From Escherichia coli (GTDB taxonomy: Bacteria > Pseudomonadota > Gammaproteobacteria > Enterobacterales > Enterobacteriaceae), in assembly GCF_029227855.1 (NCBI RefSeq), contig NZ_CP074356.1: a stretch of DNA of 64,000 nt. The stretch is one strand, 5' to 3'. Shown piece by piece: positions 39,481 to 47,340 of the stretch. The position numbers and the translations under genes are program-made. The notes beneath the pieces were generated by a model. It saw only the letters and a list, made by a program, of their open reading frames with translations. It searched no databases and was not told where the DNA came from. Position 1 is the first letter of the stretch. Each line of letters begins with the position of its first letter.

Positions 39481-40032
39481 CTATCTTCTTAGCGATGTCT
39501 TTCTGGTATCACATTGGGTCGGTGCAATTATTTTTCCTTTAATACCCATTATGTTAAGAAATTCAGAAACAGCTGTAATCTCATTGTTTTTTTCATTCGT
39601 CTTGATCTTCCAAGGAATCTGACTGTGCATTATTGAGAACACACTAATAACGTGAATCGCTCCCTTGCGACGACTCTTGTCATAAGAGTACCGGAGCGTT
39701 TTTCCATCAATTGCAATGACGTCTTTATCATCTGAAGAATGGCAGTCAAGCATCCAGTTAATAAAGCACTCATGAAATTTTTCAGGACTGATACAGGATA
39801 CAACTCTGGCAATGGTATCGTGAACAGGAATACCATTATCAAAATCACCATATTGCTTCAAAAAATCGAGATGTGTTTCCCCAAAATCCTCTATATCTTC
39901 CCAGCCTTCTGCACCCGAAATAATGGCACAAATAGTCAACAGTAGAATATCCGATAATTTATGTTCCACTTTCCAGGCTTGTCTGTAATCGGGGGTAATA
40001 GAAATATGTTCCATCAATTTTTTAAATTCCAT
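39481..40032 (-). pseudogene. H-repeat-associated (ISAs1-family) transposase, N-terminal fragment (183 codons), truncated at its junction with the cyclase island
   Basis: Near-identical over about 170 aa to the N-terminus of the full-length H-rpt ORF at 46075..47211, then diverges into a short unrelated tail. Confidence 0.7.
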
Positions 40033-40160
40033 TTTGTTCTCCTTAATTATGTAAGGAGTATTTGATCATGTATAAGCAATAAAAAACAGCTTTAGGTAAT
40101 GAGGAATATCTCAATTTTTAAACATAAAATGCGAATTATTTAGTACAAAAAAGCAGCGTT
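39481..40160 (-). repeat. Direct repeat copy A (H-rpt 5' region plus N-terminal coding part), paired with 46660..47340
   Basis: Matching strings include ccattttgttctccttaattatgtaaggagtatttgatcatgta and ctcaatttttaaacataaaatgcgaattatttagtacaaaaa. Confidence 0.6.
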
Positions 40161-40617
40161 ACGTGATCTTTCCGTGGATCGTCAAATTGTTCGAGAGAAA
40201 ATACCAACATGATGGATTTTACTGTAAAAGTAATGTCGTAGTTTAAAAACTCATCATCCGGTAAAGCCTTGTGGGGCGTGGGCTTTCATACTTTTACCCT
40301 GATGTCTGCTATACGCCGGACACCCTTTACGTAGCATTCGGAATTCACCCGTAAATTTATCACGGCGGTATCACGAAACCTCCGGTTCTGATGCCGCTTA
40401 GGACTAACGACACGTCAACACAGGTTCGGGTTTATTCATTTCACTGTATCTCATATAATCTGAGCACTCCCCCTGCGCTCGCTACTATGACTCTTTACCA
40501 CAGCAACCGGGGTTGTTTGGGATCGGCTTTCAACAGCAGATCCCGGTGGCTATTGCAAGTAAGTCTACTTTCCACATCAGTGTTACTGACACAGAAAATA
40601 ATGAGTTATGATCCTTG

Positions 40618-41103
40618 TCATATTTTTAATATAGCCCCATGAGCTATAGGATCAAAACCTTCTAACCATGAGGTGTTTTTATCGAATAATGCACCTGTTA
40701 TATTTATATCGCCATATCTATCACATAATAAATTAGCGCCACATAAGTCAGCACCAGAAAAATTTGAATCTTTAACGTCTGCATTGCAAAAGGTTGAATT
40801 AGTTAATATAGCACCCTCAAAGTTTGCACCTATTGACCTTGAATTACTAAAGTCACTTCCAGTGAAATCTGAGTTATTAAGAATAGCGTTCATCAGAGCC
40901 GCATTGCGAAAGACAGCATTTCTAGTTGATGTATGTTGAATCATTACATTTCTTAAATGGGAATTTTCAAATTTCGCCCCATCAAGACAATAACCATTGA
41001 GGATGGCACGATGTAGATCCATCCCGCTAAAATCATATCCAGCAAGAGTGGTACTATCTATATCAAGAAATTTATTGGTTATTAAAAACGCGATTCTTAT
41101 CAT
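40618..41103 (-). CDS. Pentapeptide-repeat protein, putative immunity protein for the rhs2 C-terminal toxin
   Basis: 161 aa with about 20 tandem pentapeptide repeats ([25 protein letters not shown] ... [10 protein letters not shown]); start overlaps the rhs2 stop as ATGA. Confidence 0.6.
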
Positions 41104-45311: not shown

Positions 45312-45731
45312 GGTTTATTCCTTAAATTATTTATGGTTTTATTCTGAGTGCAATCCATACTGATTCATAACCAGTGAATAAGATTTCCCCGAATAATCTA
45401 TATAAATTAGCGAAGTCCTCTTCACTAATTAACCGTAAAATCCCGTACCAATGAAATATAAAAATAACCACCCACACAAATTTATTGCAAATATTATTCA
45501 TTATTGTATATACATCATTCACTGAACGTTCTCAAACTGCATACCTTAGAACCATCAATTAAAGCCACAACAAAAAAATCGATTACTTTATGTCGCATGA
45601 CAAATATGAATTACATATTAATCAACCTTAAAAACAATCATCTCTTATAATTAACAGCATACCATGAGAAACACAAAATCAATTTACCATGCATACCAGG
45701 AGCATAATTAACCTCTCACCGCAGGGCGAAA

Positions 45732-46097
45732 TCATGAAGGCCCGCAGCCAGCAAGGATTAGAGAAAGGTATTCATTCTTACGTCCTGCCCGCTTTTGCTT
45801 GCGTTTAATACCCGCTTTAAAGCTATTCTCTGCGGTCAGTAAATTCATCGCGATATGTCGACAAACTGCCAGATTTTCTCCCGCTTCTCCACGAACAATC
45901 TGGCATTCATCTTCCCGCATCCCCATATCAAGTCGCCAGTGCAGTTGATTTTCTACCGACCAGTGTGCTCGTGTTGCTTCCAGGAGTTCTTTCGCCGTAA
46001 GCGTCACCGAACTTATGTAGTAGCGAAGAATACACTTCTCTGATTTCACCGCTGTTTCTCCTTCCAGGGCAAGATTACGAAAGCCCGCTCCCCGCAA
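45732..46097 (-). pseudogene. H-repeat-associated (ISAs1-family) transposase, C-terminal fragment of a second, diverged copy
   Basis: 121 aa piece alignable to the C-terminal third of the full H-rpt ORF but clearly diverged (RAHWSVENQLHWRLDMGMREDE versus [22 protein letters not shown]). Confidence 0.6.
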
Positions 46098-47211
46098 GGA
46101 CTGACGCCAGATAGTTTCTGTCCATGGCTGCTTTTCGCATCTTACGTCTTAACCCTGCCTTGAATACCTTATCATTCGTTAAAATATTAATAGCGATGTG
46201 CCGTATCCCTGAAAATAATTCTGCGGCGTTTCCTCTTCCTATTTTGCAGTCGTCTTCATTCATTACCACGTCCAGACGCCAGTGCAGCTTATTCTCCACG
46301 TGCCAGTGGTTTCGGATTGCTGTGGCGAACTTCTCTGCGGTTAAATCAGCAGAACTGATATAATATCTGACCGTCATTTCTGGCTCTTTCTTTTGTTCTG
46401 CTATTATTGACCGAAAGGAGACTGCCACGCATAATTTCTTCAGTCCTTTCCATTCAAACATTAAATCAATAAGTTCATCAGGGACATCACAAACAATGTG
46501 AAGACGGATTTCTTCTCTGCCGTGACTCTTTTCACTAATTGCGTAACTGTCATGCTCTGGATTATTTAATTCTTTCAGTGGGAATTTTTCCTCAAAGGCT
46601 TTATTTAGCCGCCCCTGGTTTCCTTTTACAGCGAATAAATAATCACCTCCCTGTTTTTGTATCTTCTCTGCAATATCTTTCTGGCAACCCATCGCATCAG
46701 TTGTGATGATTTTTCCTTTAATATCCAGCATGTTAAGAAGTTCAGGGATAGCTGTAATTTCATTTGATTTCTCATCCGTCCTGATCTGTCCGATGACCAG
46801 ACTGTGCATTGTTGAGAACGCACTAATGACATGAATCGCTCCCTTGCGGCGACTCTTGTCATAAGGATGCCGGAGTGTTTTTCCATCAATTGCGATGACG
46901 TCTTTATCAGCTGAAGAATGGCAGTCACGCATCCAGTTAATAAAGCACTCGTGAAATTTTGCAGGACTGATACAGGATACAACTCTGGCAATGGTATCGT
47001 GAACAGGAATACCATTTTCAAAATCACCATATTGCTTCAAAAAATCGAGATGTGTTTCCCCAAAATCCTCTATATCTTCCCAGCATTCTGCACCAAAAAT
47101 AACGGCACAAATAGTCAACAGTAGAATATCCGACAATTTATGTTCCACTTTCCAGGCTTGTCTGTAATCGGGGATAATAGAAATATGTTCCATCAATTTT
47201 TTAAGTTCCAT
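46075..47211 (-). CDS. H-repeat-associated protein (ISAs1-family transposase, YdcC/YhhI-like), full length
   Basis: 378 aa intact ORF; H-rpt elements are the usual companions of E. coli Rhs loci. Confidence 0.8.
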
Positions 47212-47340
47212 TTTGTTCTCCTTAATTATGTAAGGAGTATTTGATCATGTATACGCAATAAAAAACAGCTTTAGGTAATAAGGAATATCTCAATTTTTAA
47301 ACATAAAATGCGAATTATTTAGTACAAAAAGTGAACTTCT
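46660..47340 (-). repeat. Direct repeat copy B (H-rpt 5' region plus N-terminal coding part), paired with 39481..40160
   Basis: See copy A. Confidence 0.6.

Follow-up and report, generated by a model that had tools for sequence, protein, structure and literature searches.

The two rhs modules found in the window, a stretch of 64,000 nucleotides of Escherichia coli DNA, were probably brought together by homologous recombination between two alleles of one locus, with one crossover inside a complete H-rpt insertion sequence, as judged from comparison with alleles of other strains. The site is the variable Rhs/T6SS effector island of E. coli between yncG and pptA, which holds RhsE in K-12 and is rhs "position 6" in the scheme of Jackson et al. 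2009 (PMC2935791). The same study describes two rhs core types together at position 6 in SE11 and S. sonnei. We regard the two-module array as a rare allele of an already known type, and not as a new system.

The window matches strain JNEC-KY178, and the locus is flanked by pptA and yncG. Among 5,426 complete E. coli genomes, the two-module architecture (a 24-kb span at no less than 80% coverage) occurs once, in JNEC-KY178, which is the source strain, and more than ten other architectures are found at the locus. The observation against which the first-pass annotation had set its reading, one architecture shared across unrelated lineages with no alternatives, is thus the reverse of what these genomes contain. 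The uniqueness of the arrangement might also suggest an assembly error, in which two alleles, or two copies of a repeat, were wrongly connected at the H-rpt, and several 1-2 nt indels separate the window from the RefSeq record, one of them in rhs2, so that base-level quality is imperfect. Such an artefact is scarcely credible, given that the source record is a closed chromosome, that long reads easily resolve repeats as short (1.3 kb) or as diverged (77-90%) as these, that one isolate does not hold both alleles of one chromosomal locus, and that the flanks are colinear with all other genomes.

Two rhs modules

Module 1 is headed by vgrG (52155..54263, minus strand), which encodes a T6SS spike (TIGR03361, E = 4.7e-188; "Vgr family protein" in the source record). 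It is followed by rhs1 (47929..52088, minus strand), an RHS core with a CT1 toxin tip. This gene is frameshifted and matches NF041261 RHS_core in two ORFs (profile positions 1-1189 and 1188-1261), having lost one A from the run GGGGAAACC near 48533, where other genomes have AAA. The small ORF after rhs1 (imm1; 47558..47902, minus strand; 114 aa, annotated WP_001279013.1) is the presumed immunity gene and has no NCBIfam match. The CT1-imm1-IRL junction is present in 358 genomes.

The second gene, rhs2 (41100..45311, minus strand), is intact and encodes a 1,403-aa RHS core protein with a CT2 tip (NF041261, 2505 bits, positions 1-1261) that differs at 11 aa from the protein of rhs2-only genomes (type A). 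The vgrG gene stands upstream of rhs1, the frameshifted gene, and rhs2 is not accompanied by a second one. The neighbouring pentapeptide-repeat protein, so named in the source annotation (40618..41103, minus strand), has pentapeptide-repeat NCBIfam matches that score below the cut-off, and its position suggests that it presumably confers immunity to CT2. Both predicted pairs, CT1/imm1 and CT2/pentapeptide-repeat protein, occupy adjacent positions and are inherited together.

Both genes are Rhs elements by their matches to NF041261, TIGR01643 and TIGR03696, and their translations contain DPIGL and DPLGL motifs. GC content falls from about 0.60-0.67 in the cores to 0.30-0.43 in the tips. A tblastn search of the stretches that separate the immunity genes from the IS pieces gave no significant hit to an orphan rhs tip; an inverted "RYYD...DPGG" string near 40.48-40.56 kb scores too weakly to be significant.

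ISAs1 pieces around rhs2

The window carries four ISAs1 pieces of three lineages. The first-pass annotation had placed its H-rpt pieces on the strand of the rhs genes, and all the pieces it described do lie on the minus strand, with boundaries that we have refined. Members of the ISAs1 family are about 1.2-1.5 kb long and have CAGGG-type ends (ISfinder). The one complete copy (46065..47355, minus strand) is an H-rpt/ISEc1-like element of 1,291 bp, at which recombination would have joined module 1 to the rhs2 block. Its imperfect terminal inverted repeats, CAGGGAAAGATCA... and CAGGGCAAGATTA..., recur as the ends of nine copies from other genomes. The element encodes a 378-aa transposase (46075-47211) that matches NF033564 ISAs1 from end to end (E = 2.6e-121, positions 1-314 of 314) as well as PF13808 DDE_Tnp_1_assoc and PF01609 DDE_Tnp_1, and the two fragments described below match NF033564 at profile positions 1-142 and 246-314. 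With its single DDE transposase ORF, its size and its short imperfect inverted ends of CAGGG type, the complete element belongs to the ISAs1 family and resembles ISEc1/H-rpt, and it is 96.7-97.4% identical to copies annotated ISEc1 or ISEc5.

Unlike a simple ISEc1/H-rpt insertion, the window copy has no target-site duplication, has flanks that come from different alleles and is a patchwork of two variants. Target-site duplications mark simple insertion and are not needed for membership of the ISAs1 family; we found none at the nine H-rpt copies examined, that is, at the full copy or at eight others. This would be expected if the flanks were exchanged or deleted after insertion, and it fits the exchanged flanks that we propose below.

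Directly abutting the complete element is a 343-bp piece (45722..46064, minus strand) that was taken for a C-terminal H-rpt fragment at 45732..46097 in the first-pass annotation. The fragment exists, but it ends at 46064 and is the 3' end of a different, divergent ISAs1 element, which is full length in type A genomes. The piece has its own right end, CAGGGCGAAATCA, shares 62% DNA and 47% protein identity with the full H-rpt, and is 100% identical in protein, over aa 269-378, to the element that is full length in other genomes; the ORF at 45732-46097 reaches 33 nt into the neighbouring H-rpt by chance. The junction between the two elements (46064/46065) is present in only 3 genomes. On the other side of the complete copy, 179 bp (47356..47534, minus strand) are left from the 5' end of a third ISAs1 element, which is yncI-like; they consist of an IRL (CAGGGGAAGATCA), a leader and 21 codons. 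The remnant is 73% identical to the 5' end of K-12 yncI over 147 bp and was found also by a scan for IRL-like motifs. This remnant is a fourth ISAs1 piece that the first-pass annotation did not include.

The 5' H-rpt fragment downstream of rhs2 (39482..40176, minus strand; 695 bp, equivalent to H-rpt nt 1-696) is frameshifted and has no right end. Aligned with the full H-rpt over 698 columns, the fragment shows 90% identity and shares exact runs of 67, 55, 50, 48, 39, 30, 30 and 25 bp. It is a mosaic relative to the full copy, with about 94% identity in nt 1-540 and about 76% in nt 541-696. We rejected the notion that this fragment and the 343-bp piece are halves of one broken element; they correspond to nt 1-696 and nt 949-1291 of two elements whose mutual identity is only about 62-67%. 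Next to the fragment is a 127-bp flank with a CAGGG-like motif at its start (40177..40303, minus strand). The first-pass annotation did not note this CAGGG-initiated flank, which recurs upstream of other ISAs1 elements. In types A and B (type B being a second rhs2-only allele, which carries H-rpt and is described below), the same flank lies before the ISAs1 element that is found upstream of rhs2, and the copies in loci L002 and L003 are 83-86% identical to that of the window.

The fragment is truncated at 39481/39482, 74 bp past the stop codon of a GGDEF gene at 39407. The second rearrangement junction that had been suspected near 39480 is therefore borne out, but it is ancient. Its sequence is shared, at 99% identity or more, by 343 genomes that carry different rhs modules, some of them without rhs2, and the truncation is real but old and fixed. 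The alkyl/aryl-sulfatase and GGDEF genes beyond it (36287..39407, plus strand), previously called a cyclase island, would lie inside the imported block. The 3' end of the GGDEF gene is found in 433 of the 5,426 genomes. The sulfatase-GGDEF pair is missing from K-12, where the H-rpt right end abuts the sequence of window position 36070.

On either side of rhs2 and the pentapeptide-repeat gene, the complete H-rpt and the 5' fragment form direct repeats (696 bp, 90% identity), and the complete copy encodes an intact transposase. The two copies might for these reasons be read as a composite transposon, or rhs2 as an intrachromosomal duplicate of rhs1 between H-rpt copies. Either origin is extremely unlikely. 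The downstream copy lacks nt 697-1291 and with them the right end, which is not the make-up of a composite transposon; there are no target-site duplications; and the truncated copy and its junction occur in the 343 genomes, some with a different rhs module and no rhs2. In about 140 genomes, it is a different ISAs1 element and not H-rpt that precedes rhs2. The rhs cores share no more than about 77% identity, which, with the derivation of the upstream fragment from another ISAs1 lineage, makes rhs2 an unlikely duplicate. According to PMC3032704, H-rpt transposition has never been observed in E. coli, and a 2024 mobilome preprint contains no evidence of circular ISAs1 or rhs DNA.

Proposed import of an 11-kb block

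Recombination between two alleles of the locus is suggested by where the window is nearly identical to rhs2-only genomes and where it is not. It differs from types A and B at 0-4 positions per 500 bp from about 35.5 to 46.07 kb, versus about 20 in 30-35 kb and about 10 in 55.4-64 kb, so that the flanks are 2-4% diverged. The inferred import block would extend approximately over 35400..46440. The match of a type B allele (L003) covers window positions 35000-47355 at 99.4% and ends precisely at the left terminus of the H-rpt, and that of a module-1 allele (L009) covers positions 46065-55489 and ends precisely at the right terminus. The full H-rpt is the sequence that both matches share.

Within this element, comparison with type B gives 41 differences in nt 1-914 and only 1 in nt 915-1291, the 3' portion of about 375 nt, whereas nt 1-150 show no difference from the H-rpt that follows imm1 in GF43. 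The sites that distinguish the two alleles are mostly module-1-like in nt 15-440 and 709-913 and are type-B-like in nt 463-513 and at all 8 positions in nt 928-1269. This difference in affinity between the 5' and 3' parts is significant (Fisher p = 1.4e-4) in a comparison that covered a single type B genome and a few module-1 genomes, and the last switch falls at nt 914-927. The patchwork has at least four segments, and a single clean crossover is consequently too simple; heteroduplex repair or several events would be needed.

In the order of events that we favor, the recipient would have carried yncG-yncH-vgrG-rhs1-imm1-[yncI-like remnant]-H-rpt-pptA, an arrangement common in other strains. 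The imm1-H-rpt-pptA order of this type is present in 19KM1831, and H-rpt lies beside pptA in K-12. The donor would have been a type B allele, with H-rpt-[divergent ISAs1 3' piece]-rhs2-pentapeptide immunity gene-[5' H-rpt fragment]-GGDEF-sulfatase-pptA-yddH, and donor-like alleles are seen in GMF065 and KE55. One exchange would have occurred in or near yddH, at about 35.3-35.5 kb, and the other inside the 1.29-kb H-rpt, making its patchwork. A block of about 11 kb would thereby have been imported for a net gain of about 10 kb, setting rhs2 downstream of rhs1, and the 5' H-rpt fragment with its GGDEF junction would have arrived ready-made in the donor block. ISAs1-family elements, H-rpt and its relatives, have accumulated at this locus at the 3' end of the Rhs modules.

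The sequences themselves show the anatomy of the array, the ends of allele homology at IS termini, the SNP patchwork and the step in divergence at either side of the block; the direction of transfer and a dependence on RecA are parts of this model that we infer. Direction, and the claim of a single event, rest on parsimony: a search with the 29-35.4 kb sequence found no close relative of the recipient backbone (best non-self match 98.6%), and the exact parent of module 1 and its H-rpt was not found in the collection (at best, matches of 97.9% to H-rpt with its flank and of 96-98% to the module). The first-pass annotation had supposed that the rhs2 module was acquired or duplicated by H-rpt-associated recombination. 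The H-rpt patchwork and the near-identical block of about 11 kb argue for acquisition, and the divergence of the cores argues against duplication. The copies that bracket rhs2 do not appear to have been the substrates from which the array arose, as had been suggested; full H-rpt elements of donor and recipient would have been used instead.

Rearrangement next to ISAs1 ends is frequent at this locus. Homology between alleles ends exactly at ISAs1 termini in at least eight different alleles, and ISAs1 pieces are repeatedly stacked on the 5' stubs of older ISAs1 elements. In strain 4/4 a deletion abuts the end of a solo H-rpt, in DETEC-S792 an H-rpt replaces 1.5 kb of vgrG, and in KN12-1 an H-rpt adjoins the rhs start. 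These boundaries and deletions would also be compatible with an older two-module array from which type B and module-1-only alleles derive by deletion, through either H-rpt/rhs recombination or IS-adjacent loss. We regard this order as unlikely. A 384-bp flank on the yncG-proximal side, upstream of the IS, is common to types A and B and is absent from the window, which indicates that type B is not a deletion derivative of the array. The array is found in 1 of 5,426 genomes compared with about 140 and 358 for the single-module junctions, and simple deletion would not be expected to produce either the step in divergence at about 35.5 kb or the patchwork H-rpt.

It is very unlikely, in turn, that illegitimate, transposase-driven joining set the H-rpt end beside the divergent ISAs1 fragment independently in JNEC-KY178. 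The tendency of ISAs1 elements here to abut or sit within other ISAs1 pieces would accord with such a joining, as would the sequence upstream of the H-rpt left end, which differs between alleles, and the lack of target-site duplications. However, type B has the same junction of H-rpt with the 3' fragment and, but for 1 difference, the same 375 nt of H-rpt beside it. A joining that happened independently would not recreate both the junction and the sequence, and the near-identical block continues for 10 kb further.

Stability and relation to known Rhs elements

The first-pass annotation correctly identified the two H-rpt segments (about 90% identity over 696 bp) and the two rhs cores (about 77% over 3.7 kb) as direct repeats. 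The H-rpt starts are 7,179 bp apart. Core homology extends from about 52088/45311 to about 48360/41575, with identity per 200 columns varying from 56% to 92% and longest exact runs of 89, 74 and 59 bp. Both repeat pairs therefore contain exact runs longer than about 25 bp, and recombination within either pair could potentially delete the intervening segment of about 7 kb. If the cores were to cross over, then the vgrG-linked 5' part of rhs1 would be joined to the 3' part of rhs2 and CT2, skipping the rhs1 frameshift. Natural core chimeras with an rhs2 5' part and an rhs1 3' part occur in 19KM1831 and GF43, and no exchange between the window's two cores was observed in JNEC-KY178. The earlier expectation that the locus is likely unstable gains no support from the genomes compared. 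The predicted product of deletion between the H-rpt and the 5' fragment, in which the GGDEF end is followed by the fragment, the H-rpt left end and imm1, was found in 0 of 5,426 genomes at 80% coverage or more. The rhs2-only allele is unchanged across about 140 genomes and gives no sign of instability on a short timescale.

Rhs elements were named "rearrangement hot spots" for unequal exchange between rhs direct repeats. Lin, Capage and Hill (1984; reference 19 of PMC2935791) are said to have described an rhs-mediated chromosomal duplication in K-12 in which direct rhs repeats serve as substrates for unequal homologous exchange. The cores in that case are nearly identical and far apart, whereas those of the window are about 77% identical and 6.8 kb apart. 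In its GC-rich YD-repeat core, AT-rich tip, small ORF and 3' H-rpt, the window resembles the H-rpt-bearing Rhs elements of the Hill laboratory. In Salmonella, recombination at orphan rhs loci reportedly adds modules by homologous exchange at a conserved anchor and keeps the older modules.

The window shares its chromosomal site and flanking genes with RhsE/position 6 of K-12 (Jackson et al. 2009, PMC2935791). It differs from known alleles there in having an H-rpt between two full-length rhs genes and four ISAs1 pieces, and from the K-12 RhsE locus in including the sulfatase-GGDEF pair. The proposed import is also similar to C-terminal displacement (Jackson et al. 2009, PMC2935791), in that a module is added through recombination at a conserved anchor and the older module is left in place. 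In contrast to displacement, the anchors would be a downstream insertion sequence and a housekeeping flank and not the rhs core, and the gain is a whole rhs gene with its own start and not a tip.

A broader and more speculative possibility is that the ISAs1/H-rpt elements found at the 3' ends of Rhs modules serve as portable anchors of homology for the capture or swapping of modules or whole rhs genes, with termini that are perhaps active in one-ended, adjacent rearrangements. This reading draws on the arrest of homology at ISAs1 termini, the lack of target-site duplications, the stacked ISAs1 stubs and the mosaic structure of both the full copy and the fragment.

The yncG-pptA island is among the most re-arranged sites in E. 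coli, with breakpoints that cluster at ISAs1 ends. This variability is relevant to rhs-based typing schemes, and annotation is a concern here as well, since ISAs1 pieces are often called as separate transposase genes. Bacteria use Rhs toxins as weapons against one another, and the diversity of these toxins hinges on the acquisition of toxin-immunity modules, for which the accepted model makes the conserved rhs core the recombination anchor. Although the locus reveals no new kind of system, it provides a sequence-level example in which a downstream insertion sequence would have been the anchor, so that a complete second rhs gene was stacked behind the first and the tip was not displaced.

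Anatomy of the pptA-yncG island

The array of two Rhs toxin modules occupies the variable island between pptA and yncG, which is the RhsE locus in K-12 and "position 6" in the nomenclature of Jackson et al. 2009 (PMC2935791). An 8.6-kb query over the rhs2/H-rpt stretch is 100% identical to the E. coli JNEC-KY178 chromosome (NZ_AP045174.1), and across the wider 32.6 kb the only departures from this RefSeq record are a handful of substitutions and indels of 1-2 nt. Every rhs and H-rpt gene of the island is carried on the minus strand. On this strand, vgrG (54263-52155; TIGR03361) is followed by rhs1 (52088-47929), which is split by the loss of one A from a GGGGAAACC run near 48533, and by the small ORF imm1 (47902-47558), its presumed immunity gene. 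Next come a 179-bp yncI-like ISAs1 stub (47534-47356), the complete H-rpt (47355-46065), the 3' end of a divergent ISAs1 element (46064-45722), an intact rhs2 of 1,403 aa (45311-41100), a pentapeptide-repeat gene (41103-40618), a conserved 127-bp flank (40303-40177) and an H-rpt 5' fragment (40176-39482). The GGDEF and sulfatase genes (39407-36287) are convergent to the rhs genes. Family assignments for the ISAs1 transposase, RHS_core, VgrG and GGDEF are firm; profile searches matched the transposase to NF033564 (E = 2.6e-121) and to Pfam PF13808 and PF01609, the rhs cores to RHS_core (2,505 and 2,552 bits), and the GGDEF gene to TIGR00254.

Alignment and profile searches recovered the pieces described in the first-pass annotation (a full H-rpt, two fragments and the rhs cores), with exact boundaries now assigned, the 3' fragment moved to a separate ISAs1 lineage, and a fourth, overlooked ISAs1 piece (47356-47534) added. 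Exactly 1,291 bp long, the full H-rpt has imperfect terminal repeats that begin with CAGGG. The 5' fragment corresponds to H-rpt nt 1-696, and its start is 7,179 bp away from that of the full copy. The two are 90% identical, with eight exact runs of 25-67 bp. This identity is uneven, at about 94% in nt 1-540 but about 76% in nt 541-696, and the latter segment has no megablast-level match in any other E. coli H-rpt copy. The C-terminal fragment had been taken for a diverged H-rpt copy, which it is not. Its identity to H-rpt is low (62% DNA, 47% protein), whereas its protein is a 100% match to the final 110 residues of another ISAs1 element, present at full length elsewhere in the genomes compared.

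The 179-bp stub represents a third ISAs1 lineage, with 73% identity to the 5' end of K-12 yncI, and contains a sequence resembling a left terminal inverted repeat (CAGGGGAAGATCA), a perfect hairpin (AAAGTTGTGAT-TATC-ATCACAACTTT) and 21 codons (VNIQSLLEHIPIILDLNEPNG). The point where it meets the H-rpt left end varies among the window, DETEC-S792 and TW14425. Copies of the 127-bp flank, which starts with a CAGGG-like motif, lie directly upstream of three ISAs1 elements: the 5' H-rpt fragment, the divergent ISAs1 of the type A allele (locus L002, 16917-17043) and the full H-rpt of type B (locus L003, 17357-17483). Copies upstream and downstream of rhs2 are 83-86% identical. The flank could be what remains of a further ISAs1 element, or a site that such elements prefer as a target.

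The CT2 toxin tip of rhs2 is 141 aa long. The 161-aa pentapeptide-repeat protein encoded behind it is weakly similar to Qnr and MfpA-type proteins, a fold that would be unusual for an Rhs immunity protein. Between its gene and the 127-bp flank, a weak inverted string resembling the end of an rhs core (RYYDSLPQQPGLFG...DPGGY, with a change of frame) is present on the plus strand at about 40480-40560; tblastn gave no significant match for it.

The window and NZ_AP045174.1 differ at 27502, 29088, 29182, 29328, 29717, 32266, 38355, 41791 and about 44871. In the window narW is a shortened ORF (31723-32307), and rhs2, intact here, is flagged "frameshifted" in the RefSeq record. Base-level errors are likely in one of the two versions, so the homopolymer frameshift of rhs1 may be an error too.

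Origin of the array

Among 5,426 complete E. coli genomes, a 24-kb island query is covered to at least 80% in the source strain only. Three other alleles bear on its origin. Type A (about 140 genomes) reads yncG', a full divergent ISAs1, rhs2, the pentapeptide gene, the 5' H-rpt fragment, GGDEF, sulfatase and pptA. Type B (GMF065 and KE55) is similar, with the first 948 nt of the divergent element replaced by a complete H-rpt. Module-1 alleles carry vgrG-rhs1-imm1-H-rpt followed by the pptA or yddH side, and 358 genomes contain their CT1-imm1-IRL junction (CT1, the rhs1 tip; IRL, a left terminal inverted repeat).

The array was probably built by homologous recombination with one exchange inside H-rpt, because the shared element, the patchwork of H-rpt alleles and a step in divergence all point to this event. 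Type B shares 35000-47355 of the window at 99.4%, up to the left end of H-rpt, and the match of a module-1 allele covers 46065-55489, stopping at the H-rpt right end. The two matches therefore overlap in H-rpt alone. The window and type B copies of H-rpt have 41 differences in nt 1-914 and one in nt 915-1291, and over its first 150 nt the window copy shows no difference from the H-rpt that follows imm1 in GF43. Where type B and a module-1 H-rpt can be told apart, the window copy agrees with the module-1 type in nt 15-440 and 709-913, and with type B in nt 463-513 and at all eight distinguishing sites of nt 928-1269 (Fisher p = 1.4e-4 for the 5' versus 3' contrast). This patchwork of at least four segments calls for heteroduplex repair or several events.

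Between about 35.5 and 46.07 kb, the window has 0-4 differing sites per 500 bp from type A and B genomes, versus about 20 in the left flank (30-35 kb) and about 10 in the right (55.4-64 kb). This low-divergence block between diverged flanks is the sequence signature of a predicted import of about 11 kb. The import would have comprised part of yddH, pptA, sulfatase, GGDEF, the 5' fragment, the pentapeptide gene, rhs2, the 3' fragment and the 3' part of H-rpt, and a backbone with imm1-H-rpt-pptA would have received it. This arrangement exists in 19KM1831, and H-rpt adjoins pptA in K-12. Neither a close relative of the recipient nor an exact parent of module 1 was found among the complete E. coli genomes searched. 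Type B cannot be a deletion product of the array, because it retains a 384-bp yncG-side flank that is shared with type A and missing from the window. The earlier suggestion that the rhs2 module was acquired by H-rpt-associated recombination is upheld, but neither its origin by duplication nor the use of two bracketing H-rpt copies in the building event was borne out.

Remodeling at ISAs1 termini

Genome comparison reveals ISAs1 pieces piled on one another at this locus, and alleles that break off at the ends of these pieces. Repeatedly, the homology of an allele to the window ends exactly at such a terminus (47355, 46065, 40173-40176 and 36070). The suspected rearrangement junction near 39480 is real: H-rpt is truncated at nt 696, 74 bp beyond the GGDEF stop. 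As this junction is at least 99% identical in 343 genomes, some with a different rhs module, it is best read as old, fixed and brought in with the putative imported block, not as recent in JNEC-KY178. K-12-type alleles lack the 3.4 kb with sulfatase and GGDEF and have a complete H-rpt whose end lies at window 36070; remodeling at an IS terminus has thus affected this side of the island too. The sulfatase-GGDEF pair (window 36071-39481) is an accessory block, and the GGDEF 3' end occurs in 433 of the 5,426 genomes, about 89 of which have the island-free allele.

In this "empty" allele, the GGDEF and yncG stop codons abut (39399 joined to 55372). Strain 4/4 has a solo H-rpt with deletions at both ends, H-rpt abuts the rhs1 start in KN12-1, and 1.5 kb of vgrG is replaced by H-rpt in DETEC-S792. 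K-12 has tandem yncI and H-rpt adjoining pptA and lacks sulfatase and GGDEF. GF43 and 19KM1831 carry rhs genes in tandem without an intervening IS, and further alleles are vgrG islands with non-Rhs effectors. In UID2309220007, vgrG precedes an rhs1 core whose tip and immunity gene are different ones, and these are followed by an orphan core end that abuts the 5' H-rpt fragment. Here (locus L004, about 5175-5300) the left end of the fragment is joined straight after GACCCGATAGGG, the D-P-I-G codons of the orphan core end and the usual exchange position of rhs tips. The H-rpt of TW14425 (locus L013, 2994-3911) stops at nt 917, where the pptA flank (window ~36031) takes over. This point is within a few nt of the last allele switch in the window H-rpt (nt 914-927), a closeness that may be coincidence.

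Repeats, stability and the IS as probable anchor

An alignment of the two rhs cores extends over about 3.7 kb, with an identity of about 77% (56-92% in blocks of 200 columns) and longest exact runs of 89, 74 and 59 bp. The usual minimum exact run for RecA-dependent exchange in E. coli is 25-30 bp, and both direct-repeat pairs, H-rpt with its 5' fragment and the two cores, have several runs above this length. The second rhs gene in the tandem arrays of 19KM1831 (locus L012, 7866-12042) and GF43 (locus L008, 9730-13904) is a chimera, with 83-98% identity to rhs2 in roughly its first 1.7 kb and 95-100% identity to rhs1 in the remainder, CT1 included; the switch point is near alignment columns 1800-2100. 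The two core types have therefore recombined in nature. Deletion between the two cores of the array would fuse the 5' part of rhs1, which is linked to vgrG, with the CT2-bearing 3' part of rhs2, and the rhs1 frameshift would be lost.

The proposed instability of the locus holds at the species level, where there are many alternative architectures and the array is found once. In the short term, however, the predicted deletion product of H-rpt and the 5' fragment is present in 0 of 5,426 genomes and type A is unchanged over about 140 genomes, unrelated IS insertions aside; both observations count against it.

The Hill laboratory, in work listed among the references of PMC2935791, described Rhs elements, the H-rpt component and how these elements act as repeats in unequal exchange. 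Transposition of H-rpt has never been observed, as stated in the E. coli W genome paper (PMC3032704), and none of nine H-rpt copies examined here has a target-site duplication. Jackson et al. 2009 (PMC2935791) found two core types together at position 6 in SE11 and S. sonnei, and they proposed that tips are displaced via homologous recombination. The array differs from their model in that its probable anchor is an IS rather than the rhs core. What is new here is a rare allele with a crossover that sequence evidence places inside H-rpt, with the IS as the probable anchor of exchange.
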